Source: Prevotellaceae bacterium UBA4301
Lineage (GTDB): Bacteria > Bacteroidota > Bacteroidia > Bacteroidales > Bacteroidaceae
Direction: 5' to 3'
Assembly (NCBI GenBank): GCA_002395775.1
Contig: DGUV01000075.1
Coordinates: forward strand, 30,677-94,676
Length of the DNA stretch: 64,000 nt
Both the position numbers and the translations under genes were made by a program. Positions 2,973 to 47,642 of this stretch are shown piece by piece (positions within the stretch are counted from its first letter, which is position 1; each line of letters opens with the position of its first letter). The notes beneath the pieces were generated by a model. That model worked only from the letters and a program-made list of their open reading frames with translations. It had not been told where the DNA came from and made no database searches.

Positions 2973-4409
2973 ATGGCTAAGGACAAAGTGATGTACGTCT
3001 GCTCGGAATGTGGACAGGAAGCAACGAAGTGGGTGGGCAAGTGCCCGGCCTGCGGACAGTGGAACACCATGAAGGAATTCAAAGTCGGTCCCTCTCCCCG
3101 CTCCTCTCGCGGGGGAGAGAGCCTCGCCCTACACTTGCAGGGCAGGGAGCGTCCACAGTTGTTACAGGACATTCGGGCCGACCAGGAAGTGCGCATCGAC
3201 ATGGGCGACCAAGAGCTCAACCGTGTCCTGGGCGGTGGACTGGTGCAGGGCAGCCTCGTCCTGCTTGGCGGCGAACCGGGCATCGGCAAGAGCACACTCA
3301 TCCTGCAAACCGTCCTCCGCCTTCGTGGCAAGAAGGTGCTCTACATCAGCGGGGAAGAAAGCGCCCGCCAAATCAAACTTCGCGCCGACCGTCTCTCTCC
3401 CTCACGGGGGGAGCAGGGAGAGGGGCTTCTCATCCTATGCGAAACCTCTCTCGAGGCCATCTACGAACACATCCAGGAGGAACAGCCCGACCTGGTGGTC
3501 ATCGACTCCATTCAGACCATCTCCACCGATTCCGTAGAATCCTCCCCGGGTAGCCTCAGCCAAATACGCGAATGCGCCGCCTCCTTGTTGAAGTTTGTCA
3601 AATCGTCAGGACAAGCCCTCCCCCCCACGGGCGAAGCGGGAAGAGGGACCGGACCAAGCTGTTCCATCATCCTCATCGGCCACATCACCAAGGAGGGCAC
3701 GCTGGCCGGGCCCAAGGTGCTGGAGCACATCGTCGATTGCGTCCTCCAGTTCGAGGGCGACCAGCACTACATGTACCGCATCCTGCGCAGTCAGAAGAAC
3801 CGCTTCGGCAGCACCTCCGAACTGGGCATCTATGAAATGTTGCAAGGCGGCCTGCGCCAAGTTTCCAACCCCAGCGAGCTCCTTCTCACCGAAGGCCGGG
3901 AGGGACTGAGCGGCATCGCCATCTGTTCGGCCATCGAGGGCGTGCGTCCGCTCCTCATCGAGACTCAGGCGCTGGTCTCCACCGCAGCCTACGGCACTCC
4001 GCAGCGCTCCGCCACGGGTTTCGACACGCGTCGCTTGGCCATGCTTCTGGCCGTACTGGAGAAGCGCGTGGGCTTCAAACTGGCGCAGAAGGATGTCTTC
4101 CTCAACATCGCCGGCGGACTGCGCGTCACCGACCCTGCCATGGACCTCAGCGTCATCGCGGCCGTCCTTTCCAGCAATGTGGACGCGGCCATCGAAGCCG
4201 ACACCTGCATGTGTGGCGAAGTGGGTCTCTCGGGTGAGATTCGTCCCGTGGCCCGCCTCGAACAGCGCATTGCCGAAGCCGAGAAACTGGGCTTCCGCCG
4301 CATGCTCGTCCCGGCACAAAGCTTCAAGGGCATCAATCAGGACCGACTCAACATAGAGATTGTTCCCGTCCGCCGCGTCGCCGAGGCCGTAAGGGCACTC
4401 TTCGGATAA
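2973..4409 (+). CDS. radA: DNA repair protein RadA
   Basis: It has an N-terminal zinc ribbon (CSECGQEATKWVGKCPACGQWNT), a Walker A motif (GGEPGIGKST), the KNRFG motif, and a Lon-like C-terminal domain. Confidence 0.95.
   Translation: MAKDKVMYVCSECGQEATKWVGKCPACGQWNTMKEFKVGPSPRSSRGGESLALHLQGRERPQLLQDIRADQEVRIDMGDQELNRVLGGGLVQGSLVLLGGEPGIGKSTLILQTVLRLRGKKVLYISGEESARQIKLRADRLSPSRGEQGEGLLILCETSLEAIYEHIQEEQPDLVVIDSIQTISTDSVESSPGSLSQIRECAASLLKFVKSSGQALPPTGEAGRGTGPSCSIILIGHITKEGTLAGPKVLEHIVDCVLQFEGDQHYMYRILRSQKNRFGSTSELGIYEMLQGGLRQVSNPSELLLTEGREGLSGIAICSAIEGVRPLLIETQALVSTAAYGTPQRSATGFDTRRLAMLLAVLEKRVGFKLAQKDVFLNIAGGLRVTDPAMDLSVIAAVLSSNVDAAIEADTCMCGEVGLSGEIRPVARLEQRIAEAEKLGFRRMLVPAQSFKGINQDRLNIEIVPVRRVAEAVRALFG
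3088..3150. repeat. Family A GC-rich palindromic arm(s), in-frame in radA
   Basis: cctctccccgctcctctcgcgggggagagag plus gccctacacttgcagggc. Encodes GPSPRSSRGGESLALHLQGRE in the linker after the zinc finger. Confidence 0.7.
3393..3427. repeat. Family A arm, in-frame in radA
   Basis: ctctctccctcacggggggagcagggagaggggct. Its reverse complement nearly equals the mnmA left arm. Encodes SPSRGEQGEG. Confidence 0.75.
3614..3650. repeat. Family A arm, in-frame in the radA ATPase domain
   Basis: agccctcccccccacgggcgaagcgggaagagggacc encodes ALPPTGEAGRGTG. Compare the mnmA right arm, which encodes [11 protein letters not shown]. Confidence 0.8.
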
Positions 4410-4973: not shown

Positions 4974-6629
4974 ATGACACGAGACCTACAACTGCGCATC
5001 ACGCCACGCGATGCCTACAACGAACAATCCATACGCCGATATGTGGCACGCGAACAGGGATGGGACGAACGCACCATCACCTGCGTACGCACACTGCGCC
5101 GGAGCATCGATGCCCGTCAGCGCGACATCTATGTCAACCTCTCCGTGCGCGTCTTCATCAACGAACAACCGCCCCAGGACGAGTTCCAGCCCGTGGAATA
5201 CCACGACGTGAGCGACCGCCCGCAGGTCATCGTCGTCGGTGCCGGACCGGGGGGACTCTTTGCTGCCCTCCGGCTCATCGAACTGGGCCTGCGCCCCATC
5301 GTGGTGGAGCGTGGAAAGAACGTGCGCGACCGCAAGAAGGACCTGGCCCGCATCCGACCCGAACAGCGCATCGACCCCGAGAGCAACTACTCCTTTGGCG
5401 AGGGCGGCGCAGGCGCATACTCCGACGGCAAACTCTACACCCGCAGCAAGAAGCGCGGCAACGGAGAAAAGATTCTCCGCGTCTTCTGTCAGCATGGCGC
5501 CAGCCCCAGCATTCTCTCCGATGCCCATCCCCACATCGGTACAGATAAACTGCCCCGCGTCATCGAGAACATGCGCGAAACCATCCTCCGCCATGGTGGC
5601 GAGGTGCACTTCGAGACGCGCATGAGCGCGCTTCTAATTCAAAATTCAACGCTCGGCCCAAAGGGACGCTTGCAGAGCGAAGCGGGGCAAGAATTCAAAA
5701 TTCAGCATGGGTCTGCACCTTATGTCGAAGGCATTGCCTGTGCCGACGGACGGGAGTTCCATGGCCCAGTCATCCTGGCCACGGGCCATTCCGCCCGCGA
5801 TGTCTATCGGTGGCTCTACGACAATGGCATAGAACTCGAAGCCAAGGGCCTGGCCGTGGGCGTCCGCCTCGAACATCCTGCCGAACTCATCGACCAGATA
5901 CAATACCATAATAAGCACGGACGCGGCAACTACCTGCCCGCTGCCGAGTACAGCCTGGTGCAACAGGTGGACGGACGTGGGGTCTATAGCTTCTGCATGT
6001 GTCCGGGTGGTTTCGTGGTTCCTGCCGCCAGCGGCCCCGAACAGATTGTGGTCAACGGCATGAGCCCCTCCAACCGCAACGGCCGATGGAGCAACAGCGG
6101 CATGGTGGTGGAACTGCGCCCCGAGGACGTAAAACAAATTCAAGATGAGGGAGAAGGCGACGTCCTAAAGATGATGCATTATCAAGAGGAACTGGAGCGC
6201 ACATGTTGGCAGCAAGGCAACATGCGCCAGACGGCACCCGCCCAGCGCATGGCCGACTTCGTCAACAACCGCCTCAGCTACGACCTCCCCGCATCGTCCT
6301 ATGCCCCCGGCCTCATCAGCAGCCCCCTCCACTTCTGGATGCCCGAACCCATTCGCCATCGACTGCAGCAGGCCTTCCAGACGTGGGGCCGACAGAAGCA
6401 CGGTTTCCTCACCAACGAGGCCACCGTCATCGGCGTGGAGACGCGCACCAGCAGTCCCGTACGCATCGTGCGCAATCCCGACGACCTCCAGCACATCCGT
6501 CTCCGCGGCCTCTTCCCCTGTGGCGAAGGCGCCGGCTACGCAGGCGGCATCGTCAGTGCCGGCGTCGATGGTGAGCGCTGCGCCGAAGCGGCATTGCAGT
6601 ACTTGGAGGAGGTAAGAGGTAGGAGGTAG
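4974..6629 (+). CDS. FAD-dependent oxidoreductase (COG2509-like)
   Basis: 551 aa with the dinucleotide-binding motif VVGAGPGGLFAAL, ATGHSARD, and a C-terminal GEGAGYAGGI. Confidence 0.75.
   Translation: MTRDLQLRITPRDAYNEQSIRRYVAREQGWDERTITCVRTLRRSIDARQRDIYVNLSVRVFINEQPPQDEFQPVEYHDVSDRPQVIVVGAGPGGLFAALRLIELGLRPIVVERGKNVRDRKKDLARIRPEQRIDPESNYSFGEGGAGAYSDGKLYTRSKKRGNGEKILRVFCQHGASPSILSDAHPHIGTDKLPRVIENMRETILRHGGEVHFETRMSALLIQNSTLGPKGRLQSEAGQEFKIQHGSAPYVEGIACADGREFHGPVILATGHSARDVYRWLYDNGIELEAKGLAVGVRLEHPAELIDQIQYHNKHGRGNYLPAAEYSLVQQVDGRGVYSFCMCPGGFVVPAASGPEQIVVNGMSPSNRNGRWSNSGMVVELRPEDVKQIQDEGEGDVLKMMHYQEELERTCWQQGNMRQTAPAQRMADFVNNRLSYDLPASSYAPGLISSPLHFWMPEPIRHRLQQAFQTWGRQKHGFLTNEATVIGVETRTSSPVRIVRNPDDLQHIRLRGLFPCGEGAGYAGGIVSAGVDGERCAEAALQYLEEVRGRR
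5636..5704. repeat. Family C element, in-frame in the oxidoreductase gene
   Basis: acgctcggcccaaagggacgcttgcagagcgaagcgggg is bracketed by two copies of aattcaaaattca. It is homologous to the reverse complement of 46077..46120. Confidence 0.7.
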
Positions 6630-6635
6630 GAGATT

Positions 6636-7721
6636 ATGGACAAAGACACTTACGAGAAGCAACGGGCATTTGCCGGCGAGAAGAAGCCTTCCATGAAGCG
6701 ACGCTGCGTGGGCCACGACTACACCGAGCGCCAAATGTACATGGTCACCATGACCGTCGAAGGCCGTCGCCCGCTGCTCGGCACGCTCGTAGGCAACAAC
6801 GAAACCGATGCCCAAGTCGAACTCACAGAACTCGGGAGGGCGGTGGAAGAAGAATGGTGGGCATGTACGCAACATCATCCAGAGATAGAAGTTATTGCCT
6901 TGCAAATCATGCCAGACCACATACATGGGATTTTATTTGTAAGGGAAAAAATGGAGAAGCCCTTAGGCATGGCTCTTCGAGGATTCAAACAAAGCTGTAA
7001 CAAGCACTTCCGCAGCATCATTCTAAAAAAAGAGGTCCCGTCTGTTGCGTCTGTTGCGCCAGTCCCGTCTGTTGCGTTGCCAACGCAACCTACAATACCC
7101 CAAACGCAACCAACAACACCCCAAACGCAACCAACAACCCCCCAGCGCCCAGCCTACGACCGCAACCACGGCCTCCTCTTTGCCCCCGGCTACAACGACA
7201 AGCTCCTCCTGCGCGCCGGCCAACTGGAAGTATGGAAAGCCTACCTGCGCGACAACCCACGGCGCCTTTTTGTCAAGCGCCAGCATCCCGAATTATTCCG
7301 CGTGCGCTTCGACCTCACCATCGGCAGCCAGACCTACTCGGCCCTGGGCAACCACTTCCTGCTCAGCCACCCCCTGCGCATAGCAGTGCAATGTTCGCGC
7401 CGCATGACCGAGACCCAGATAGAGCAACGGGTGGAGCAGGCCCTCGAAGCAGCCCGCCAAGGGGCAGTACACGTCTCCCCCGCCATTTCGCCCGGTGAGA
7501 AAGCCGTCATGCGCGCCCTCCTCAATGCCCACCGCCCCATCATCTTCATCGAGGAAAACGGCCTCACGCCCTACACCAAACCCGGAGGTGAGCTCTTCGA
7601 AGCCTGCAACCGAGGCCAACTGCTCATCCTCGCCCCATGGGAGCACCACAACGAGCGCATACTGATAACGCGAGACAAATGCCTCGCGCTAAACCAAATG
7701 GCAGCAGAAATCTGTAAGTAA
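6636..7721 (+). CDS. REP-associated tyrosine transposase (RAYT)/IS200-like Y1 HUH domain protein with a C-terminal extension
   Basis: GHDYTERQMYMVTMTVEGRRPLLG...IMPDHIHGILFV (HUH motif) ...GYNDKLL...AYLRDNPRR (Tyr motif region). It also has a proline-rich repeat insert and about 150 extra C-terminal residues. Confidence 0.7.
   Translation: MDKDTYEKQRAFAGEKKPSMKRRCVGHDYTERQMYMVTMTVEGRRPLLGTLVGNNETDAQVELTELGRAVEEEWWACTQHHPEIEVIALQIMPDHIHGILFVREKMEKPLGMALRGFKQSCNKHFRSIILKKEVPSVASVAPVPSVALPTQPTIPQTQPTTPQTQPTTPQRPAYDRNHGLLFAPGYNDKLLLRAGQLEVWKAYLRDNPRRLFVKRQHPELFRVRFDLTIGSQTYSALGNHFLLSHPLRIAVQCSRRMTETQIEQRVEQALEAARQGAVHVSPAISPGEKAVMRALLNAHRPIIFIEENGLTPYTKPGGELFEACNRGQLLILAPWEHHNERILITRDKCLALNQMAAEICK
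7035..7141. repeat. Palindromic tandem-repeat insert inside the RAYT-like ORF
   Basis: gtcccgtctgttgcg occurs twice. The central perfect palindrome is gttgcgttg-c-caacgcaac. ccccaaacgcaaccaacaaca then occurs twice. The region encodes PSVASVAPVPSVALPTQPTIPQTQPTTPQTQPTTPQ. Confidence 0.85.
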
Positions 7722-7739: not shown

Positions 7740-7880
7740 GATTCCCAATCATCGCCGAATCACTACCCAATCATCGCAAATTTACTTACCAATGATGAGC
7801 CGATGATTGGTAAGTGATTTCGTGATCATTGGTAATCTATTTTCTGATCATTGGGAATCTATTTCCTGATGATTGGGAAC
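7740..7880. repeat. Dyad-symmetric array of 22-bp-spaced CCAATSATS boxes
   Basis: Three cccaatcatcg-type boxes start at 7744, 7766 and 7788. Four inverted gatsattgg boxes have their attgg cores at 7806, 7828, 7850 and 7873. The symmetry centre is near 7800. Confidence 0.85.
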
Positions 7881-7883
7881 CAA

Positions 7884-7920
7884 ATCAAAAGAGCGCCCGC
7901 AACCCATCAGTTGCGAGCGC
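7884..7920 (-). terminator. Hairpin terminator for the convergent genes
   Basis: Stems gcgcccgcaac / gttgcgagcgc pair at 10 of 11 positions. On the minus strand the hairpin is followed by TCTTTTGATTTG. Confidence 0.5.
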
Positions 7921-7977
7921 CCATCTCAAAATCGTTAAACGTTAAACAGGGCAAAGCCCGATTAAACTGTTAAACTT

Positions 7978-9408
7978 TTATTGGGTTTTACCCAAAATTA
8001 TATTCACCAGTGCCGTCACGTCAGCGATAGACCTACTGCCATCGTTATTCACATCGGCTGCCTTCATATCATAGTTGTCAGACTCCGTTGCCTTACCCAG
8101 AATGATGTTCACGAGAGCCGTCACGTCAGCAATAGTCTGGGAACCATCCCTGTTTACATCGCCAGCCAGAGTCGTTTCAGCCTCAATGGGCAATACCAAT
8201 TCAGCTGTACCCGTGTATTCCAGCCACGCCTTATTCGCAGGCATCGCCGTTACCGTTTCATCGGGTTTCACGAATCCCAACTTCCCCGAGGCCGTGATGC
8301 CAAGGACGTACTTTTGGGGTTTACCCTTCTCATCAACATCTATTTTGTTGTTTGCATCGAAGGATGCTCCATTCGTTGTTGTAGTACCTTGGGTTCCAAC
8401 GGAAGCTCCTGTGTACTTGTCAAAATACATAGTCCCATCGGTATTGCAGAAGAAAGTGCCTTTCAGCAGATTTGCACCTGTATAAGAGGTAGATGGTGTT
8501 GCACTAGAAGCCACAACTGTTGGTGCACCTTCGGGTACGATATAGTTCCCTGTCTTACTGCTGCATTCGAGCAGGACTGGCGTACATGCAGGAACACTTC
8601 CTTCGATTGCCTCTATCTCAACAGTGCCGTCTTCACCGATGTTCGCAACAGCATAGGCGCTCTGTATATTTCCCCCGATTGTGTAAGGGAATGCAGTGTA
8701 ATATGTTGCGTACCATTTCCCTCCATAGGAGAATGATGGATTCACATTTAATGCAGTAACTGGCTCAATGTACCACTTGTGTTTGGCATTAGAAGAACTG
8801 TAGTTCTCGGTCATACCAAAACTTCCGCCCTCATCCAAGAAGTCTTCTGTACCGATTGTAATTGTCTTTGAAATATTATAAGATGGGACAGCCCCTGTTC
8901 CAGTTAGTTTTTCTGACACACGGTACATTGTTGAAGCCCCTGTTCCCGATACTTTTTTTACTGTAGCGAAAAGGTTGTTGAAGGTACAATTGATATTACT
9001 TGTTACATACTCTCCTGTTGTAAGTTGTACTAATCCCGTGGATTGCCCTTGGATGTCATAGTTGTCATCGGAATTCTGTTTTAGGTATATAATTGTAGAG
9101 GGTAGTTCACATGCCGAGTCATCCACCATGTGAATGTCTGTCTTCAGGTATGCACCGGCACAAGATAAGGCTGCAGGAACACCATAGTCATCTGCTATTT
9201 TCACAAATAACATGGTATAACTAAACATGTGCTTGGCCCCGTTTCCCGCAGTTGCAATAACAGTTGAATAATCGAACTTATTGTTCTCCAAACTGATGTA
9301 ATTGCCCGTACCGACATTCTTCACACGGTAATAGCCCGTTCCGTTTAACTGAGCATAAGCAGTAAGCGTTATCAATAGCAGGAACGAAATTACATAAATC
9401 TTTTTCAT
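7978..9408 (-). CDS. Secreted hypothetical protein with two C-terminal dockerin-type repeats
   Basis: It has a signal peptide (MKKIYVISFLLLITLTAYA). It ends with DVNRDGSQTIADVTALVNIILGK and DVNNDGSRSIADVTALVNIILGK. The body is paralogous to the C-terminal module of the neighbouring giant protein. Confidence 0.7.
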   Translation of the reverse strand: MKKIYVISFLLLITLTAYAQLNGTGYYRVKNVGTGNYISLENNKFDYSTVIATAGNGAKHMFSYTMLFVKIADDYGVPAALSCAGAYLKTDIHMVDDSACELPSTIIYLKQNSDDNYDIQGQSTGLVQLTTGEYVTSNINCTFNNLFATVKKVSGTGASTMYRVSEKLTGTGAVPSYNISKTITIGTEDFLDEGGSFGMTENYSSSNAKHKWYIEPVTALNVNPSFSYGGKWYATYYTAFPYTIGGNIQSAYAVANIGEDGTVEIEAIEGSVPACTPVLLECSSKTGNYIVPEGAPTVVASSATPSTSYTGANLLKGTFFCNTDGTMYFDKYTGASVGTQGTTTTNGASFDANNKIDVDEKGKPQKYVLGITASGKLGFVKPDETVTAMPANKAWLEYTGTAELVLPIEAETTLAGDVNRDGSQTIADVTALVNIILGKATESDNYDMKAADVNNDGSRSIADVTALVNIILGKTQ

Positions 9409-9483: not shown

Positions 9484-12400
9484 TTAGTTGTTAGGCTTAC
9501 CTAAGATAATGTTAACCAAAGCAGTCACGTCGGCAATCGTTCTCTTTGTGTCGCAATTCACATCAGCAGCCCCGAAGTCAAAGTTGTCAGGATTGTTCTC
9601 CTCCGTAACCTTACCCAGGATGATGTTCACGAGTGCCGTCACGTCGGCAATACTAATCTTACCATCGCGGTTTACATCACCAGCCTTCATTAGGCGAATT
9701 TCTGTATAAATGTCGCTGACAAGGAATGCCTTGTTGGCATTTATGTTTTCCTTATCACTTGCGAAAATAGTGCCGAATTCAGCAACATTTTCCAGAACAC
9801 ATACATTCACGTCAACTTCCTTACATTCATCCTTAGAGAGTCCGAAGAAGTACTTGTTGCCGACGGTACCGGCGTTCTTCAGCATCAGGTGCTCGTACTT
9901 CTTGAGGTAAGTCTCGTAAGCACTTTCGCCGAGGATGCTCTTGGCCATGTCGAAGAGACTTTCTACCTGAGGAGTCTTAATCTTATATTCGCTAATGAGA
10001 TAATCGGGACCCTTCAGCAGGTTGTCGGTTACGGCAGAACCAGTCTTGCTGAGCTCTAATGCCTTACTTCCTGCAGTCTCCGAGACAAGCAGAATGGGTG
10101 TTTGTTCGGCAATGCTTTGGGCATCGATTTCCTCTGTCTCAGCATAACCGTAGCAACCACTTTCCCCTATGCTTGTCACCTTCATTGCCTTCACGCCCTC
10201 GGGCAGAGTATAAGCGAAGTCGGTGTAGAGTGTGGTGTAATACTTATCACCTACCTTATTCGTCTCAGGAATTTCCACCTCGAACTTGCTGACGGGCTCC
10301 ATGGTCCAAGCCGTAGAGGCATCCTTGATAGCAACATTGCCTTCGCTGATGAAGTCAACGCCGGATGCGCTGGGCACGATGTAGTACTTGAAGTTGGGAC
10401 GGATGTTCTCCACCTTGTCGATGTACTTCGAGTAGTCGCCCAGCTTGTCCTGAATCTCGGCAAAGCGCGGATGATTCTTCAGGTTGCCCCAGTAGAGCAT
10501 AGCGGTCTGATAAGCAAAGTTCCAGACATTGGCCTCGCTTGAGAGCACTTCCTCGTAGAACTTAGCCTCGTCGTCGGCAGGATTGGTCAGCGTGCTGTCC
10601 ATGCGCTCCCAGATGGTCTGGAGGCTGAAGGGAACCAGGACACTGGCACCGCTGCCATTGGTCTTCTCCAGAACCTTCTGGATGGCCTTGTTGATGAACT
10701 CTTCCAGTTCGGGCAGCTTGGCATCCACGTTAGCCTTGTTCTCGGCATAGAAGTCAACCACGGGCTTCATGCTGGGCGTGCGGCCATAGATGCGATAAGC
10801 CTCACCGTCCTTCTTCAGATAGAGGTTATAGTCGAACGACTCGTTGAACTTGTCCATGATCTTGTCATAGCCTGTGGTACCCAGCAGTTCGCCAGCACCC
10901 TCGGCATGGAGCTTGTCAACGGCCAGCTGCACGATTTCGGGCACATAGTTCATGGCCTTCTTAGCGTAGCCGGGCAGGTCAACGCCCTGTGAGCGGAGAA
11001 CCTTGACGCCCTCGGCGTCGGCATTGACGCGGATGACGGTGCCGGCCTTGCCTTCGGCATTTTCAACCAAGGTCACGGTCTTGCGACCAGCCACGTTCAC
11101 GAACTTGCCGTCGTTGGTCTTGATGTTGTAGTAGCCGTCAGGCACCTCTGCGCCAGCCTGCTTAGCCACGATGGTGAAGGTCTTCTCCACCTCGTCGCTC
11201 TTCACGCCGTCCTTCTCGGCCCAAGCCTTCACGGTAGTGGTCTCGCTGATGGTGAAGGGAGCGGAGTAGGTCTGCTCAGCACCGCCGTTCAGCGTGTACT
11301 TCACGCCCTCGCCTGCGATGGCCACCGTCAGCTCACCCTCGTACTCACCACCATCGTGGAAGATGATGGGCTGAGCAAGCTCTGCAGTATAGCTGTAACC
11401 AGTTTCTGTTTTTGTCTCAACAATAACATAACCGGCCTCGGCAGCGCTGAAGATATTGGTCTGTTTATCGGTCTGAACAGTAACACCAGTGTTCAGTGCA
11501 ACACTGTGATCGTTCTTGTCTGCGGTGAAGTCACCAAGCAGGAAGTTGAACGAAGTGCCACTTGCCAACTGGCAGGTGATGTCCTCAGTCAGCGTGATGT
11601 TCTTCTGCAGGGCAATGAACTCACCATCGGCAAGCCAACCATTCTTGAAGGGGTCAGCAAAGCTGTAGTAGCCACCATCATATCCGCCTTCTACTGCCCA
11701 GTAGTAGTGAATCTCAGAAACATAGTTTACAGGATAGAGACCGGTTTCGTCAGCGGGATCAATAGTCTCTTGATGTGAACCGTCGAGGTATCCAGCAAAT
11801 GCGGCCTTCGTGGTGTCGTCAAGATACAGTTTGTTATTCATCAGGCTTCCCCAGTTGTGGGTAATAGCACCCCATGTCTTGTCGTTGGTCTCGTAGGTGG
11901 TCTCACCAAGGAGTTTCACGACATTGCCTTCGCCACCAAGGGTAATCAGTGACTGATAGGTGCCTTCCTTGGCACTTGAAGTAATCTTGGTATCCTTCAC
12001 CTCAATGGTGTTGTTTCCACCCTCAGTTACCAGAATAGAGAAGTTATTTGAATTGCCACTCAGACCCTGGCTCTTCATCTCGCTACCCTCAATCTTAACG
12101 GTCGAACCAGCTGCATCGGGCTTCAGATAAACATTGGCCCAGCCAATCAACTTCGAATCGGTAACTGTGATGTCGGCAGGATGACCTGCAATGATAGCAT
12201 AGTGAGCCGTACCAGCGTCGTTGGTCTTGATAACACTGCCGTTTGTGACATTCAGCGTCACGCGGCCTTCATTGCTAATCGAACCGATGGTCAACGGCTG
12301 GTTATAGCTCTTACCGTTTGTTCCATCCAGTACGGTATTGTCGAGTGTGCAAGTCAGGTTGCTGGCAATCCACAAGCAAGCCTCTGCCTTGTTGCTCTTG

Positions 12401-16233: not shown

Positions 16234-16349
16234 TTGCTCCTCTTCGTTACACAAGCGTAGGCTTTGCCTCCGATTACTTGCTCCTCTTCGTTACGCAAGC
16301 GTCACTGCTTTGCAGATGCCGAGCGAAAGGGGAGTTAAAAGGGAGTTAG
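16234..16349. repeat. Upstream repeat cluster: direct repeat, diverged family C copy and family D boxes
   Basis: cttgctcctcttcgttacRcaagcgt occurs twice (16234 and 16277). It is followed by gcgtcactgctttgcagatgccgagcg, which resembles family C, and by ggagttaaaagggagtta, which is family D. Confidence 0.6.
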
Positions 16350-19296: not shown

Positions 19297-19303
19297 TTCT
19301 TAA

Positions 19304-19332
19304 GGAGTTAACGACCTGCGGTCGAGGAGTTA
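19304..19332. repeat. Family D module (GGAGTTAA-hairpin-GGAGTTA), inverted relative to 19835..19948
   Basis: ggagttaa cgacc tgc ggtcg a ggagtta. Confidence 0.8.
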
Positions 19333-19441
19333 TATTGGGAGTTATGTGGGGAGTTATATTGGGAGTTATATTGGGAGTTATGTGGGGAGTTATGTGGGGA
19401 GTTATGTGGGGAGTTATTGTTCACTGGAGTTATGTTGAGAC
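19326..19441. repeat. 12-bp tandem repeat (GGAGTTATRTKG), 7 units plus 2 degenerate units
   Basis: Units start at 19326, 338, 350, 362, 374, 386 and 398. Degenerate units start at 19410 and 19426. The array overlaps the last codons of the four-helix-bundle ORF. Confidence 0.9.
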
Positions 19442-19812: not shown

Positions 19813-19834
19813 GTATTCTTTTTTTATTACCTTT

Positions 19835-19948
19835 TAACTCCTCGACCAAAGGTCGTTAACTCCTTTTATTACCTTTTAACTCCTCAACTATGGTTGTTAA
19901 CTCCTTGCTCAAGGAGCATTAACTCCTCGACCAAAGGTCGTTAACTCC
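19835..19948. repeat. Four chained family D modules (TAACTCC-hairpin-TTAACTCC)
   Basis: Modules lie at 19835-63, 19877-904, 19898-926 and 19920-48. Their stems are cgacc/ggtcg, caac/gttg, tgctc/gagca and cgacc/ggtcg. Confidence 0.85.
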
Positions 19949-19953
19949 TTTTA

Positions 19954-20268
19954 TTACATCATCCCCAGTTCCAACTTCGCTTCTTCGGACATCATGTCCT
20001 TGTCCCACTCGGGTTCGAAGACCAGATTGACATCGACGTGGCGGAGGCCATCGATGGTCTCGAGCTTCTGGCGCACGTCCTCCATGATGAAGTCGGCGGC
20101 AGGGCAGTTGGGGGCGGTGAGCGTCATATCGACCTGAAGCTCGGTGGCATCGTCGGAGAGTTCGATGCGATAGATGAGTCCGAGGTCATAGATGTTGACG
20201 GGGATTTCGGGGTCATAGACGGTCTTGAGGAGGTCGATGACTTTTTCTTGTATCTCTATTTGGTCCAT
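19954..20268 (-). CDS. DUF59/MIP18-family Fe-S cluster assembly protein (SufT/PaaD-like)
   Basis: VYDPEIPVNIYDLGLIY...MTLTAPNCPAA. The start was set at the ATG at 20268 to avoid overlap with radC. Confidence 0.75.
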   Translation of the reverse strand: MDQIEIQEKVIDLLKTVYDPEIPVNIYDLGLIYRIELSDDATELQVDMTLTAPNCPAADFIMEDVRQKLETIDGLRHVDVNLVFEPEWDKDMMSEEAKLELGMM

Positions 20269-21070: not shown

Positions 21071-21082
21071 TACAACAATTTT

Positions 21083-21122
21083 TAACTCCTGCGCCAAAGG
21101 CGCTTAACTCCCCTTTAACTCC
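21083..21122. repeat. Family D module plus an extra TAACTCC box
   Basis: taactcc tgcgcc aaa ggcgc ttaactcc cctt taactcc. The stem differs from other copies but stays complementary. Confidence 0.8.
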
Positions 21123-21128
21123 CCTTTT

Positions 21129-22246: not shown

Positions 22247-22295
22247 CAAAGGTACGAATAAGCCATCAAAATACCAAACATGTTTGGGCATTTTC
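22247..22295 (-). repeat. Family B promoter-like module, including -7 box TACCTTTG at 22247-22254
   Basis: caaaggtacgaataagccatcaaaataccaaacatgtttgggcatttt resembles the copies at 45876.. and 31040... Confidence 0.65.
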
Positions 22296-28266: not shown

Positions 28267-28404
28267 GCCCCTACCCCCAATCCCCTCCCGAGGGAGGGGC
28301 GTGAACACAGGCATAAAGATAAGTTACAATATATGAATATCGGGAAAAACATAATTAGCAATAATGCCCACTCCTCCCCCTCGGAGGAGGTCGGAAGAGG
28401 GGCC
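28266..28404. repeat. Family A inverted doublet (REPIN/MITE-like) spanning the ddl-acyltransferase junction
   Basis: Left arm: ggcccctacccccaatcccctcccgagggaggggcg. Right arm: gcccactcctccccctcggaggaggtcggaagaggggcc. The reverse complement of the right arm resembles the left arm. A 64-bp AT-rich core between them contains the ATG at 28333. Confidence 0.7.
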
Positions 28405-29589
28405 ATTGGGAGTTCGGAATTCGACCAAATCCGCCCTTACAACGATGACGAGGTGAAGGAGGCCATCGAGAGTTTGCTTCAGGACCGACAGTTTTCGCGC
28501 ATTCTCAAGCGAATCCTTCCTCTCTTGCCCTTGGGCATGAGTCGCGGCGTGCTGAAACTGGCCACGCTGGGCATACACTCGACGCTCGACTTCCAGCTGC
28601 GATTCATGAAGCCTGTGGTAAACTACATCCTGCGGAAGTGCTCGACGGGCCACACCTTCCGGCACGACGGCATTACGCCTGGTCCGGACCGCTACACCTT
28701 CATCAGCAACCATCGCGACATTGTGCTCGACAGTGCCATCCTGGACGTGATGCTCCACGATGCCAAGTTCCCAACCACCTGTGAGATAGCCATCGGCGAC
28801 AATCTCCTGATATATCCCTGGATTCGCACACTGGTGCGACTGAACAAGGCCTTCATCGTGCGGCGCAACATCTCGCGTCGCGAACTCTTCGAGAGCAGTC
28901 TGCTCATGAGCCGATACATGCACCATGTCATTCAGGAGAAGCGGGAGAACATCTGGATAGCCCAGCGCGAAGGCCGGGCCAAGGATTCGAGCGACCACAC
29001 ACAGGAGGCGCTGCTGAAGATGCTGACCCTCGCAGGCACAGAGGGCACAGAGAAGACCGAGGGCACGGAGTCTTTGCAGGAAAGCATCCGGCAGTTGAAC
29101 ATCGTTCCGCTATCGATAAGCTACGAATACGACCCTTGCGACTATCTGAAGGCTAAGGAGTTCCAGCAGAAGCGCGACGATGCCTCGTGGAAGAAATCGA
29201 AACAGGACGACCTCACGAACATGAAGACGGGCATCTTCGGAAAGAAAGGCCATGTGCACTACCAGACCGGGCGACCCGTGAACGAGTGGATAGACGAACT
29301 GAAGGACCTTGACAAGAGCGAGTTCTATGCCGAACTGGCCCGTCGCATCGACATTGAGATCTATCGCAACTACCGTCTGTTCCCAGGCAACTATGTGGCC
29401 GCCGACCTGCTTGCCAATCGACCCTCCCATGCCAGTCAGTACACCCACAAGGACAAGGTAACCTTTGAAAAATACATAAAGGAACGCATGGCCTTGGTGG
29501 ACTTGTCCAACCGAGACGAGGACTTCCTGCGCGAACGTCTGCTCACCATGTATGCCAATCCCGTACTGAACTATGAAAAGACGATATAA
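28333..29589 (+). CDS. Glycerol/lysophospholipid acyltransferase family protein
   Basis: 418 aa with the HX4D motif SNHRDIVLDSA. The first 24 or so codons lie inside the family A doublet. Confidence 0.7.
   Translation: MNIGKNIISNNAHSSPSEEVGRGAIGSSEFDQIRPYNDDEVKEAIESLLQDRQFSRILKRILPLLPLGMSRGVLKLATLGIHSTLDFQLRFMKPVVNYILRKCSTGHTFRHDGITPGPDRYTFISNHRDIVLDSAILDVMLHDAKFPTTCEIAIGDNLLIYPWIRTLVRLNKAFIVRRNISRRELFESSLLMSRYMHHVIQEKRENIWIAQREGRAKDSSDHTQEALLKMLTLAGTEGTEKTEGTESLQESIRQLNIVPLSISYEYDPCDYLKAKEFQQKRDDASWKKSKQDDLTNMKTGIFGKKGHVHYQTGRPVNEWIDELKDLDKSEFYAELARRIDIEIYRNYRLFPGNYVAADLLANRPSHASQYTHKDKVTFEKYIKERMALVDLSNRDEDFLRERLLTMYANPVLNYEKTI
29032..29070. repeat. GGCACAGAG (GTE) short tandem repeat, in-frame
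   Basis: gcaggcacagagggcacagagaagaccgagggcacggag encodes AGTEGTEKTEGTE. It shares a 17-nt identical core with the reverse complement of 294..326. Confidence 0.75.
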
Positions 29590-30289
29590 AGGAGTTAAAA
29601 GGGAGTTAAAGGGGAGTTATACTCGCTTTGCTCGTGGAGTTAAAGGGACAATTCGCCTACCAATCAAATACATTCGTCCCTTTACCTTCTTCTTAACGCC
29701 CCTTCTATTACTTTTAACTTTCTTTTCATTGTCGTCATGTCGTGACGACAATGATGATGCCCCCTACCCCAGCATCATCACCGAAATGGCCGACTGCCCC
29801 ACCAACAGCGACGGCACCATGGTGAAGATTGTGCTTGACGATGATACCGAACTGCCGCTCAGCAACCCACAAACGGGGTTGAAAGCCGATGTCATCTATC
29901 GCTGCCTGGCCGGCTACACCTTAGACAAAGGGCAAGCCACCCTCTATAGCCTGAAGTCTGCTGCCCTGCTGCGCGACTCCACGTCGGTGGCCCAGTGCGA
30001 CCCTGTGAATGTCGTAAGCCTGTGGCAGACACGCCGCTACATCAACCTCCATCTCATGCCCAAGACACAAGACCAAGGGACGCACTCGTGGGGATTCATC
30101 ACCGACAGCATCCGAGGCCGCCATGCCTACCTGCGGCTACACCACCGACAGGGCTCCGACCCAACGGCCTACAGCACCGACGTCTATGCCTCACTGCCCC
30201 TCCACCTCGTAGCGGCCGATACCATCACCCTGCGCATCCGCACCTTCTCTGGCACGAATGAGCAGACGTTTCCCTTAGAAAGCAAGTAA
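29573..30289 (+). CDS. Hypothetical lipoprotein, tentatively NigD-like
   Basis: It has the lipobox FFSLSSC. Its N-terminal 25 codons run through the family D GGAGTTA boxes. The family assignment is from memory only. Confidence 0.45.
   Translation: MKRRYKGVKRELKGSYTRFARGVKGTIRLPIKYIRPFTFFLTPLLLLLTFFSLSSCRDDNDDAPYPSIITEMADCPTNSDGTMVKIVLDDDTELPLSNPQTGLKADVIYRCLAGYTLDKGQATLYSLKSAALLRDSTSVAQCDPVNVVSLWQTRRYINLHLMPKTQDQGTHSWGFITDSIRGRHAYLRLHHRQGSDPTAYSTDVYASLPLHLVAADTITLRIRTFSGTNEQTFPLESK
29590..29641. repeat. Family D GGAGTTA boxes, 4 copies
   Basis: ggagtta occurs at 29590, 29601, 29612 and 29635. Confidence 0.75.
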
Positions 30290-31039: not shown

Positions 31040-31170
31040 CAGAAAACGGCAAAGTTCTTTGTTTTTTCGCTCGCTTAATCGTACCTTTAACCTGCGGTTT
31101 TAGGTACTACCGCTCGGAAAAAACAAAAGTTCTTTGTTTTTTCGCTCGCTTAATCGTACCTTTGTGCCCA
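31040..31170 (+). repeat. Family B: duplicated promoter-like module with a hairpin, upstream of mnmA
   Basis: agttctttgttttttcgctcgcttaatcgtaccttt occurs twice. The first copy runs into the palindrome gtacctttaacc tgc ggttttaggtac. The second copy ends in the -7 box TACCTTTG (31157-31164). Confidence 0.8.
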
Positions 31171-31182
31171 AATAGCAAGGGC

Positions 31183-32430
31183 ATGAAGAATATAGCTGTA
31201 CTGATATCGGGCGGCGTGGACAGCGCCGTAGTGGTTCACCAATTGTGTGAACACGGTTACAAACCCGACCTTCATTATATTAAGATAGGTATGGAAGGCG
31301 AGGACTCGTCTTGCTCGGCCGAGGAGGATATTGAACTCTCGCAGGCCACGGCAAGGAAGTATGGTCTGAAGCTGGAAGTCACCGACCTGCAGAAAGAATA
31401 CTGGGAAAAGGTGGTGGGCTATGCCATAGAGCGCGTGAAGGAAGGACTGACGCCGAACCCCGACGTAATGTGCAACCGACTCATCAAGTTCGGAGCCTTC
31501 GAGGAACGCATCGGCAAGGATTACGACCTCGTGGCAACGGGGCACTATGCAACACGCAAGGCCCCTCTCCCTGCTCCCCCCGTGGGGGGGAGAGTCTTGC
31601 CTTTCCTGTTGAATGATGTTGAACTAAAGACAGAAACGCTGGAGGACATTGCCCTCGAAGGAGAAGCCCTCCCCCCCACGGGGGGAGCGGGGAGAGGGGC
31701 CATTTTTCTGGGCACCGCCAAGGACCCCGTGAAGGACCAGACGGACTTCCTTGCCCAACTCACCTACGAACAACTCCAGCATACCATCTTCCCCATTGGT
31801 CACCTAATGAAGGAAGAGGTGCGGGACATTGCCATCCGGGCAGGATTGCCCAGTGCGCGCCGTAAGGACAGTCAGGGCATCTGCTTCCTGGGCAAGATAA
31901 ACTACAACGACTTCCTGCGCCGTTTTCTGGGCGAACAGGAAGGCCGCATCATCGACATTGAGACGGGTAAGGTGGTGGGTAGGCACCGGGGATTCTGGTT
32001 CCACACCATCGGGCAGCGCAAGGGATTGGGACTGAGCGGCGGCCCCTGGTTCGTGGTGAAGAAGAACGTCAAGAAGAACATTGTCTTCGTGGCCCGCGGC
32101 TGGGACACGCAGTTGCAGTATGGTCACGACTTCCGCCTGGCCGACATGCACTTCATCACAAGCAATCCTTGGGAAGAAGAGACGAATGAAGAGGGGAACG
32201 TGAAGCGCGGAGAATCAGAATTAATCAAGAAGGGCTTGCCCATTTCGTTCAAGATTCGGCACGTCGATCACTTCATGCCCGGCATCATCACACTGGACGA
32301 CGAAGGCTATCACATCCACTCCGACGAACCCATTCAGGGCATTGCCCCCGGCCAGTTCGGATGCATCTACGACGCCGAACACCGCATCTGCTACGGCAGT
32401 GGCGAGATAGCCATATACAAAGACCGATAA
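31183..32430 (+). CDS. mnmA: tRNA 2-thiouridine(34) synthase MnmA
   Basis: It has the PP-loop [29 protein letters not shown] and [10 protein letters not shown]. The start was set at the ATG at 31183. The upstream ORF extension is translated repeat sequence. Confidence 0.9.
31561..31700. repeat. Family A inverted doublet inserted in-frame in mnmA
   Basis: Left arm: gcccctctccctgctccccccgtgggggggagag. The reverse complement of the right arm is gcccctctccccgctccccccgtgggggggagggc. The core is about 70 bp. The region encodes [47 protein letters not shown]. Confidence 0.85.
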
Positions 32431-37522: not shown

Positions 37523-37530
37523 CAAAGGTA
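37523..37530 (-). promoter_or_regulatory. -7 promoter box TACCTTTG upstream of the riboswitch
   Basis: The reverse complement of caaaggta, within ttattcgtacctttgcag. Confidence 0.55.
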
Positions 37531-37903
37531 CGAATAATTCGCCGACCCTGCAATAGTCTGCGTACTTTTTATATAAAATCATGATAACGTGCGCTTAGGA
37601 GCAGCGTCCAAAACATATAGAAGCATAGGCCCATACACATAATAGCATAGGCGTATGCTCATAGGAGCATTCCTTGTTCCTTGCCGAAGAACGAATATTC
37701 GCCGTCGAGGAACATAAATTCCCCGTCGGCGAACATTCGTTCTCTGACGGGGAACATATTTTACAGACAGCCCTTTCGAGGGCCCATTCCTAACTGCAAA
37801 GATAAGAAAAAAACAGGAGCAAAAGCAAATAAATGTGCCTATTATTTGCCGGGAAAGTCCAGTCCCCTCTCGTAGAGTGTCGAGAAGATGACCTGCGCTC
37901 CCC

Positions 37904-45838: not shown

Positions 45839-45872
45839 ACGCTATTATATTAATATATAATGTATAAAATCG

Positions 45873-46183
45873 GCACAAAGGTACGAATAAGTGAGTAAAA
45901 TGCCAAACTTGTTTGAGCATTTTCGAACGGAAGTACCTAAAACCACAGGTTAGAGGTACGAATAAGTGAGTAAAATGCCAAATTTTGGAGCAACGAATGC
46001 AAAGATTTGCTTGCATAGTCTTTGCTGAGTCGCGACAAAATAAGGCCAAAGGCCAAACTTGTTTGAGCATTTCTTTCCCCGCTTCGCTCTGAAAGCGTCA
46101 CCCTTCGGGATGCCGAGCGTCGAACGGAAGTACCTAAAACCGCAAGTTAAAGGCACGAATAAGTGAGTAAAATGCCATGTTTC
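45873..46183. repeat. Family B: three promoter-like modules with hairpins in the etfB / lipoprotein divergent region
   Basis: aggtacgaataagtgagtaaaatgcca occurs at about 45879 and 45954, and as aggcacgaataagtgagtaaaatgcca at about 46151. Hairpins are gtacctaaaacc aca ggttagaggtac (45932-58) and its relative at about 46130. The real -7 box for etfB lies at 45876-45883. Confidence 0.8.
46077..46120. repeat. Family C element nested in a family B copy (filled site)
   Basis: ccccgcttcgctctgaaagcgtcacccttcgggatgccgagcgt interrupts gagcattt..cgaacggaagtacc. That flanking sequence is uninterrupted at 45914-45937, which is the empty site. Confidence 0.8.
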
Positions 46184-47573: not shown

Positions 47574-47634
47574 CGAGGAAGATGAAGATTACAAATTGTA
47601 GGCTGAAAGAAGGTTGTGGTCAGATAATTTTTCG

Positions 47635-47642
47635 TACCTTTG
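47635..47642 (+). promoter_or_regulatory. -7 promoter box TACCTTTG, only 4 nt before the GH115 ATG
   Basis: ttcgtacctttgtggtATG. This spacing implies a leaderless or near-leaderless mRNA if the box is used. Confidence 0.4.

Follow-up and report, generated by a model that had tools for sequence, protein, structure and literature searches.

Repetitive extragenic palindromes (REPs) and the REP-associated tyrosine transposases (RAYTs, also named TnpA(REP)) form a kind of system whose biology, to our knowledge, has been worked out almost wholly in Proteobacteria. A survey of TnpA-Y1 proteins by Quentin et al. (2018, PMC6006769) describes REPtrons, gives YIxxNP as the Y motif of class 2 (Table 1 therein) and catalogues Y1 proteins with REP-like structures in Bacteroidetes, in subclasses 1.2, 2.4 and 2.6. 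In subclass 2.4 (Cyanobacteria/Bacteroidetes), double-foot REPs lie in frame within tnpA(REP) between its HuH motif and its Y motif. Intragenic REPs have been recorded by Di Nocera et al. (2013, PMC3733652), together with CGTC-tagged repeats, Bacteroidetes included, for which no dedicated transposase is known; these authors also give the correspondence between Rickettsia palindromic elements (RPEs) and CGTC repeats. In this study, we analyzed a gene and its hairpin from Prevotellaceae bacterium UBA4301, which lie in a stretch of 64,000 nucleotides (contig DGUV01000075.1, positions 30,677 to 94,676 of the forward strand), hereafter called the window. The gene product is probably a highly divergent Y1 HUH nuclease of the RAYT/TnpA(REP) branch, joined to a DprA-like domain and carrying its own REP-like hairpin in a linker.

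With RAYT/TnpA(REP) proteins, REPtrons, the E. coli RAYT (4er8) and class 2 in general (PMC6006769), the system shares an HUH motif with a single tyrosine, a Y motif of the YxxxNP type and a low copy number. It further shares with RAYTs and REPtrons a gene flanked by cognate palindromes (at part of the homologous loci, the window not among them), a stem that co-evolves while a short foot stays fixed, and a stable position within a lineage. A sequence-only reading of the locus had already suggested a REP-RAYT type of system, and this frame holds; the same reading knew of no characterized system in the phylum, yet the subclasses named above had been catalogued in Bacteroidetes through sequence analysis. 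The features of the gene are as follows.

6636..7721, plus strand: open reading frame (ORF) of 361 aa, with a Y1/HUH nuclease domain split by a linker and then a predicted DprA-like C-terminal domain
6636..7025, plus strand: residues 1-130, first part of the Y1 core (beta1 'YMVTMTV', alphaA, beta2, beta3 with the HUH motif, alphaC)
6918..6926, plus strand: HUH motif H95-I96-H97 (cac ata cat), in PDHIHGILFV
7026..7163, plus strand: residues 131-176, a hypervariable, disordered linker made of hairpin arms, between alphaC and beta4
7035..7077, plus strand: three left units GTCCCGTCTGTTGCGT, found by repeat search, reverse complements of the right units
7035..7077, plus strand: left arms, with the foot GTCCCGTC at 7035-7042 and 7062-7069, plus TGTTGCG
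7071..7089, no strand: perfect palindrome GTTGCGTTGcCAACGCAAC, that is GTTGCGTTG-c-CAACGCAAC, encoding VALPTQ; the cognate REP-like hairpin
7082..7144, plus strand: three right units AACGCAACC..., as 21-nt units AACGCAACCaACAAcACCCCA
7188..7208, plus strand: GYNDKLL, beta4 region, counterpart of the 'W' motif strand in other Y1 proteins
7239..7265, plus strand: Y motif AYLRDNPRR on helix alphaD (helix 196-205); Y203 is tac, 7242-7244
7299..7718, plus strand: residues ~222-361, predicted DprA-like Rossmann (SLOG-type) domain with the invariant motif VSPxISxGE

Tandem Repeats Finder detected 4.3 copies of period 9 at 7039-7077 and 3.0 copies of period 21 (92% matches) at 7082-7144, and the arm 7044-7053 is 90% complementary to both 7101-7110 and 7122-7131. 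The palindrome GTTGCGTTGcCAACGCAAC occurs once in the window (with up to 3 mismatches, 0.02 matches are expected by chance), and the looser pattern GTTGC-N9-GCAAC stands at chance level elsewhere in it. The self-complementary repeat block with a perfect palindrome, described in the sequence-only reading as a linker inside the catalytic domain, is thereby confirmed. That reading also called the insert atypical; it is real and unusual but no mere oddity, being itself the cognate element. When folded as single-stranded DNA (ssDNA), 7030-7150 gives nested arm pairings with a free energy (dG) of -15.3 kcal/mol and a z of -2.0 against shuffles, which is modest alone. The left foot is present twice and the right foot has decayed. 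Relative to a 96%-identical relative (locus L081), the differences concentrate in the linker, where one hairpin copy has been gained or lost.

From genomes of rumen and gut Bacteroidales, 80 loci with a homologue were fetched. The 81 loci compared (869 kb) contain 139 perfect odd palindromes with stems of at least 8, and 108 of these belong to the YGC-N9-GCR type. The linker holds 68 of the 108; a further 14 stand at most 150 nt upstream of the ATG, 20 stand at most 150 nt downstream of the stop codon, and the other 6 are elsewhere. The linker copies are perfect palindromes of 8-13 bp at the same site in 68 of the 81 loci, where by our own arithmetic about 0.2 would be expected by chance. The aligned proteins differ in linker length, but the nearly fixed core of the linker, VALPTQQT, is exactly the palindrome. 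The closest clade keeps the exact DNA palindrome, with the centre base alone varying and giving P, A, T, S or L, and other clades have different perfect palindromes at the same site (TGTTGCTGTAnTACAGCAACA, TGTTGCGACTCAGTCGCAACA, TGCTGCAACAnTGTTGCAGCA and TGTTGCTGTGGCACAGCAACA) and changed peptides (VAVLQQQ, VATQSQQ, AATLLQQ and VAVAQQH). For 26 main-clade loci with a mean protein identity of 78%, the four-fold third codon positions within the hairpin are identical at 1.0, 1.0, 0.92 and 1.0, as against a mean of 0.41 over 116 conserved four-fold sites outside the linker. At locus L027 a different frame of these hairpins is translated, giving CVGNATDGT. Given the frozen synonymous sites, the changed peptides and the second frame, the selected object is the DNA (or RNA) palindrome and not the peptide. 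We read the linker palindrome as the REP-like element of the family itself, in a copy conserved at the DNA level.

Covariation points the same way. An alignment of 52 distinct 27-mers, anchored on the palindromes, showed double changes in 10 of 13 pairs; the inner four pairs had 16-30 double changes and zero unpaired cells, and the observed score was reached by none of 500 shuffles. Hairpin types track the protein tree, and flank copies share the clade-specific stem of the in-gene copy (L060, L050, L076, L078 and L010). The right arm is amplified in tandem in the window, L007, L046 and L202, and the left arm in the window and L029.

The full element spans about 37 nt and comprises a 10-bp stem, with a conserved outer part (TGYTGC/GCARCA), four co-varying inner base pairs and a free central base, flanked on both sides by feet (GTnnnGTn ... 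nACnnnAC). Its consensus, taken over 192 arms of metagenome sites and 206 arms of genome loci, is GTyCnGTa-TGTTGCGTTG-n-CAACGCAACA-tACnGrAC, and the footed element can be written as GTCCCGTC-TGTTGCGTTG-C-CAACGCAACA-GACGGGAC. Of the 206 arms of homologous loci, 160-176 carry the foot GT at -8/-7 and -3/-2, whatever the stem type. A distant locus, L206, has a different stem (GCAAGCGCTTGC) with the same TACGGGAC foot, in three copies upstream and several within the linker, and another, L205, has three CCCTGCG-GAGAGA-CGCAGGG units in the linker; the theme is therefore family-wide. The GTAG tag is absent from the element, and CGTC is only one foot variant, GTA being commoner.

Three kinds of gene-linked site were recognized: 35-80 nt before the ATG, just past the promoter -7 box; in frame in the alphaC-beta4 linker; and 15-100 nt after the stop. 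Clade-matched flanking copies exist at about 30 of the 81 homologous loci and also at metagenome loci, and hairpins stand on both sides of the gene in L010, L016, L021 and L060. Direct-repeat arrays with periods of 30-31 and 60-66 nt, in which the same flank stands on the same side of the hairpins, were found in L082, L016, L027 and L031. In L031 (5877-7165) and L027 (6440-8058), long direct arrays (30-31-nt or ~60-nt period) surround the gene, beginning upstream of it, continuing in its linker and ending downstream. The arrays are direct, and the element shows no inverted REPIN doublet as its unit.

Searching of metagenome contigs yielded 144 exact-match sites, among which 46 were in a homologue, 26 in its immediate flanks and 4 further off in the same locus. 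For 37 sites, at least 1.5 kb to left and right was free of any homologue; another 31 sites had no homologue but lay near a contig end. Dispersed copies make up about half of the exact sites. Many of the dispersed copies lie in frame inside other genes (metagenome loci L089:202-7587 on the minus strand, L162, L169, L200 and L149). They were found in a non-ribosomal peptide synthetase (NRPS; two copies), in glycoside hydrolases of family GH43 (one copy in the inter-domain linker), in an M6 peptidase/Omp28 protein and in a rhamnosidase of family GH106. They mostly read SVALxTQQT, and several stand just ahead of C-terminal sorting regions of the YDLQGRR type (L162, L200). The site in the GH43 protein (L169) is a naturally variable inter-domain loop, and no empty-site allele was found for this copy, its closest homologues being at most 85% identical; the boundaries of the element are therefore not fixed by it.

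The protein itself belongs to a very large family. More than 5351 full-length homologues with 56-96% identity were found, 310-409 aa long and varying in linker length, and in Bacteroidales the family comprises over 5000 clusters when sequences are grouped at 90% identity and over 1100 at the 50% level. Its members are named 'transposase', 'hypothetical protein' or, in IMG, 'RayT'. Searches of the native protein with phmmer and hmmsearch against PDB, Pfam and NCBIfam gave sub-threshold matches only. Pfam Y1_Tnp (PF01797), the profile proposed for checking by the sequence-only reading, does align, at 14.1 bits with the native protein and 20.2 bits after deletion of the linker (residues 131-174; E=7e-4, profile positions 35-120 of 121), both below the gathering score of 23. 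The NCBIfam profile REP_Tyr_transpos (NF047646; equivalog cut-off 80 bits) matched the native protein at 26.7 bits over residues 29-126 only, and the linker-deleted core at 35.1 bits (E=1e-8, profile positions 6-133 of 146). Among ten distant family members, nine scored 13-22 bits with Y1_Tnp and one had no match at E<=0.1. PADLOC gave no match for the protein, hence no evidence for a defence role.

An AlphaFold2 model was built from 34 homologues, with a confidence (pLDDT) of 77. Its topology is beta1-alphaA-beta2-beta3(HUH)-alphaC-[linker]-beta4-alphaD(Y), followed by a second well-folded alpha/beta domain; pLDDT is below 50 over residues 136-176, the linker. Foldseek against PDB matched the N-domain to ISDra2 TnpA (2xm3, E=1.2e-5), to the TnpA proteins of IS608 and IS200 and to the E. 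coli RAYT (4er8, E=2.5e-3), with target-normalised TM scores of 0.6-0.69. The model thus places the N-domain in the Y1 HUH endonuclease superfamily with the IS200/RAYT fold, as the sequence-only reading had said, and the linker-deleted match to REP_Tyr_transpos agrees with it. D94, H95, H97, Y186 and Y203 are invariant in the alignment of the 34 homologues, as are L204, P208, R209 and R210. The catalytic residue is most likely Y203 of AYLRDNP, and not the tyrosine of GYNDKLL as first supposed, in view of its position in the linker-deleted profile alignments and of the published class-2 motif: Y203-L-R-D-N-P conforms to Y-[ILV]-x-x-N-P and not to Y-x-x-x-Q. Y186 of GYNDKLL is invariant too, yet is not the predicted nucleophile; in distant members its position reads LWEENYHDRIL or FWETGYHDRIL, and the Y motif there is YI.DNP.

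The C-terminal ~150 aa, which the sequence-only reading could not place, are conserved (pLDDT ~83-97 over residues 200-300 and 72-93 beyond 300) and are modelled as a DprA-like Rossmann domain. Foldseek matched them to ShosA (8zva, E=1e-5) and to DprA of R. palustris, H. pylori and S. pneumoniae, the structures 4ljk, 5mll and 3uqz being among the matches, with E values from 1e-5 to 6e-3; the match to 4ljk_G has E=3.6e-5 over 151 columns with a root-mean-square deviation of 4.4. A phmmer match to 5mll is weak (E=1.6, residues 236-282), and the domain has no Pfam or NCBIfam match, DNA_processg_A (PF02481) included. VSPxISxGE is located where DprA has SGxAxGID. When the domain was searched alone, 1166 clusters at 50% identity were recovered, nearly all with the same two-domain layout and the domain at the C-terminus.

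Compared with known systems, the family shows both resemblances and departures. It differs from RAYTs in its NCBIfam score (35 vs 80 bits), in the lack of a W motif in the clade, in having GTnnnGTn feet on both sides and not GTAG, in an element that is low in copy number and often intragenic instead of present in hundreds of extragenic copies, in direct arrays (L082, L031) without the inverted doublet, and in the additional 140-aa DprA-like domain. Subclass 2.4 is similar in its in-frame double-footed REPs between HuH and Y, in a peripheral loop, and in its occurrence in Bacteroidetes; its own motifs are NH[IFV]H / WQ / YIxNNP in proteins of mean 194 aa without a C-terminal domain (PMC6006769), whereas here we find DH[LIM]H / F-A-x-G-Y-N-D / YL[RA]DNP in proteins of ~350 aa with a DprA-like domain, and an in-gene copy that is near-universal (68/81 loci), fixed in position and co-varying. 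PMC6006769 makes no mention of a DprA-like domain, and the supplements available to us contain no Prevotella or Bacteroides. With DprA/Smf (4ljk, 5mll, 3uqz) and the Shosta protein ShosA (8zva), the C-terminal 140 aa of the model share the DprA Rossmann fold on which they superpose; unlike DprA/Smf, the protein has no PF02481 match and no SAM or winged-helix extension, and is fused to a nuclease. Palindromes tolerated in frame within protein-coding genes are also known as RPEs. These are about 100-150 bp long, and the element here is much shorter. The bases just 5' of the stem in the window read CGTC (GTCCCGTC|TGTTGCG) as in CGTC REPs, but the latter, as described, have stems of 8-9 bp that open on A/T pairs, loops of 4-5 nt and a CCA tail, none of these fitting the element, and we take the resemblance as no more than a lead. 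In the literature that could be searched, nothing specific turned up on a fusion of RAYT with DprA or on this family in Prevotella/Bacteroidales.

By analogy, the gene and its hairpin would make up a REPtron-like RAYT/REP pair. The mechanisms by which IS608 TnpA and the E. coli RAYT process hairpins provide the model for the steps proposed. The element would extrude as a hairpin on transiently single-stranded DNA, and the Y1 domain would bind it, as the two model enzymes do, reading the stem shape and the GT feet. Y203, with the metal bound by HUH, would then cut and rejoin the strand beside the GT foot, while the DprA-like domain may hold the adjoining ssDNA or provide dimerisation or contact with RecA. 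Such cutting and rejoining, together with slippage of the arms, could keep copies palindromic, spread them at a low rate, and expand or contract the gene's own linker. Continued action, or gene conversion between copies, might account for palindromes that stay perfect while the gene diverges, for the match between flank and in-gene copies, and for the tandemly amplified arms. The promoter-proximal copy may give feedback control of the gene.

Several points weigh against this reading. The profile scores of the protein lie under both curated thresholds. Classical REPs number hundreds, whereas the metagenome sample contains about 1-2 dispersed exact copies per gene copy, the genome loci contain 6 copies not linked to the gene in ~770 kb, and the window has no further copy. 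In the window the gene also lacks a flanking hairpin: its ATG follows the upstream gene's stop codon after just 6 nt (6630-6635), and the array on its downstream side is made of other repeats. No perfect in-gene copy was found in 13 of the 81 loci (L026 and L028 have lost it and kept the upstream copy), so the in-gene copy is dispensable. The absence of G-U pairs from the core stem is partly a product of the palindrome-anchored alignment, and a perfect palindrome would equally be selected by a dimeric protein that binds double-stranded DNA (dsDNA).

A bolder version, which we consider doubtful, would make the HUH-DprA protein a dedicated hairpin recombinase by which its element is continually edited. 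The enzyme would lengthen, shorten and re-install a stop-free, 'coding-compatible' palindrome, its own linker included, would place it in the flexible linkers of surface glycoside hydrolases, cargo of the type IX secretion system and NRPS, and would couple HUH cleavage to RecA-type strand exchange through the DprA-like domain. This version takes the gain and loss of arms, seen even in relatives that are 96% identical, as a sign of self-editing or autoregulation. If it were true, the family would be a REP system living mainly inside genes, and might be the type of enzyme so far lacking for palindromes that have feet but no known transposase.

It is quite unlikely, in our judgement, that the palindrome serves only as a cis-regulatory site for its own gene, as an operator bound by a dimer on dsDNA or as an RNA hairpin in the 5' untranslated region (UTR), ORF or 3'UTR, and is no substrate of the HUH enzyme. 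Such a role would fit the upstream copies of L010 and L016, which directly follow a Bacteroidetes -7 box (TTGTAnnTTTGCA), the downstream copies at terminator-like positions, the linkage to the gene of 102 of the 108 genome-locus copies, and a two-fold symmetry suited to a dimeric binder. A private regulatory site would not be expected far from any homologue in unrelated genes, where about half of the exact metagenome copies lie. A co-varying inner stem with fixed outer stem and feet is moreover the structure-plus-foot pattern of REP/RAYT and IS608, the core stem is free of G-U pairs (in the palindrome-anchored alignment), and the enzyme encoded is of the hairpin-processing class.

The Y1 transposase fold, the hairpins on either side of the gene at four loci and a genomic context that differs among distant genomes might also suggest an autonomous insertion sequence (IS) of the IS200/IS605 type with the hairpins as its left and right ends. 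The likeness to the TnpA proteins of IS608 and ISDra2 is close: the 2xm3 match is second only to ShosA 8zva, and those enzymes recognise subterminal ssDNA hairpins. We hold this to be very improbable. The sequence-only reading expected a single copy, and there is one in the window; two metagenome-assembled genomes, however, carry two divergent copies each (L014 with L043, and L041 with L074), and the two differ in hairpin type. Relatives at 96% and 74% identity share the neighbourhood RadA - FAD-dependent protein - gene - dockerin protein, which is gone at 70%, and no neighbour gene is common to all 81 loci. Family proteins diverge gradually (49-96% identity), and near-identical copies are not the pattern. 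Phages yielded no homologue and plasmids no true one, the single plasmid hit being a weak N-domain match on a Leptolinea plasmid, and no tnpB partner stands near the gene in the neighbourhoods compared. Low copy number, local synteny and the lack of phage and plasmid homologues indicate behaviour like that of a RAYT and not of an IS. The Y motif is YLRDNP (class 2/RAYT), whereas IS200 transposases have Y...Q (PMC6006769, Table 1), the palindromes are perfect, the gene is not mobile in the short term, and many loci, the window included, have no flanking hairpin. A conserved operon with the upstream FAD-dependent gene was also considered and rejected, as this neighbour occurs only in the window's own lineage. 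The 3' end of that gene holds a tandem AGGAGGT repeat (3.7 copies, 6607-6632) right before the ATG at 6636, which is Shine-Dalgarno-like and unusual for Bacteroidetes.

The sequence-only reading had named the protein as candidate mobiliser of the REPIN-like doublets that are abundant in the window. Three repeat families are concerned, the first with the core CTCCCCCC-GTG-GGGGGGAG and GGCCCCTCTCCC flanks, often in inverted doublets 54-100 nt apart, the second with a 12-nt tandem array GGAGTTATnTnG (7-8 copies) and with inverted TAACTCC copies that surround hairpins, TAACTCCTCGACCAAAGGTCGTTAACTCC among them, and the third an intergenic module of ~50-110 nt with CAAAGGTACGAATAAG.

3087-3128, 3385-3427, 3608-3650 and 28269-28407: GC-rich hairpins
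31560-31603/31658-31701, 34850-34881/34942-34973 and 43800-43829/43899-43924: GC-rich hairpin doublets
16326-16348, 19302-19429, 19834-19957, 21082-21127 and 29590-29619: GGAGTTA family
22247-22295, 31058-31168, 37523-37547, 45872-45985, 46120-46182 and 47618-47642: CAAAGGTACGAATAAG module

A RAYT-type gene is the textbook candidate for such a role, and the window does hold inverted GC-rich doublets (31560-31603 with 31658-31701, for example) as well as GGAGTTA arrays. The doublets share nothing with the TGYTGC/GCARCA hairpin or the GT feet, and none of the three families flanks the gene in the window, whose linker carries a different hairpin. In the 855 kb around the 80 homologues, where linkers and flanks carry the co-varying hairpin, the CTCCCCCC..GGGGGGAG hairpins have 6 matches and the GGAGTTA doublets 2, as against 11 of the latter in the window. 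The repeats of the window are lineage-specific and nearly absent around the homologues, and on present evidence they are not the cognate element, so that mobilisation of them by this protein is extremely unlikely. The CAAAGGTACGAATAAG module looks like a duplicated promoter/leader rather than a REP; its reverse complement holds TACCTTTG, which fits a Bacteroidetes -7 box.

Other repeats lie downstream of the gene. An array of 22-nt units with CCAATCATCG at 7742-7879 runs two to three units one way and then three to four inverted, with 55-nt arms that are 73% complementary; it occurs nowhere else in the window, and L081 has one unit fewer. It was rejected as a flanking REP of the gene, being unique to the lineage and not of the TGTTGC type. 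L081 has a copy of the GC-rich hairpin downstream of the gene where the window has other sequence. The hairpin GCGCCCGCAAC-CCATCA-GTTGCGAGCGC at 7902-7932 has a T-run on the minus strand and probably serves as terminator for the dockerin-type gene that converges on it at 7978-9408 (minus strand); it contains CGCAAC and GTTGCG in the order opposite to that of the element. An 85-nt repeat at 7978-8167 and 9487-9685, at the 3' ends of two adjacent minus-strand genes, encodes a paired dockerin-like motif (GDVNRDG..IADVTALVNIILGK) and is therefore an ordinary protein-domain repeat.

The chance that the insert is only a low-complexity Pro/Thr/Gln linker, its palindromy a by-product of selection for VALPTQQT or of repeat slippage, is next to nil: the linker is disordered, and on aligning the proteins its peptide core, V-A-L-x-T-Q-Q-T, seems to be conserved, but synonymous sites are frozen solely in the hairpin, other clades keep the palindrome with changed peptides, L027 uses another frame, and identical sequences stand in non-coding flanks.

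The kind of system, a RAYT/REP pair, is already known, and the DprA-like fusion, the co-evolving hairpin in the gene's own ORF and the low-copy, often intragenic elements are best taken as features of a new branch. This branch is a very large Bacteroidales family that goes undetected by Pfam. The presumed substrate can be read from the enzyme's own gene, and since each protein lineage has a matched hairpin at a fixed place, the family offers dozens of natural enzyme-hairpin pairs for studies of specificity. The DprA-like fusion points to a link between HUH cleavage and the handling of ssDNA or RecA. The in-frame copies in rumen glycoside hydrolases, NRPS and secreted proteins represent a phenomenon like that of the Rickettsia RPEs in gut and rumen Bacteroidales, and bear on gene calling, on the evolution of protein linkers and on assembly.

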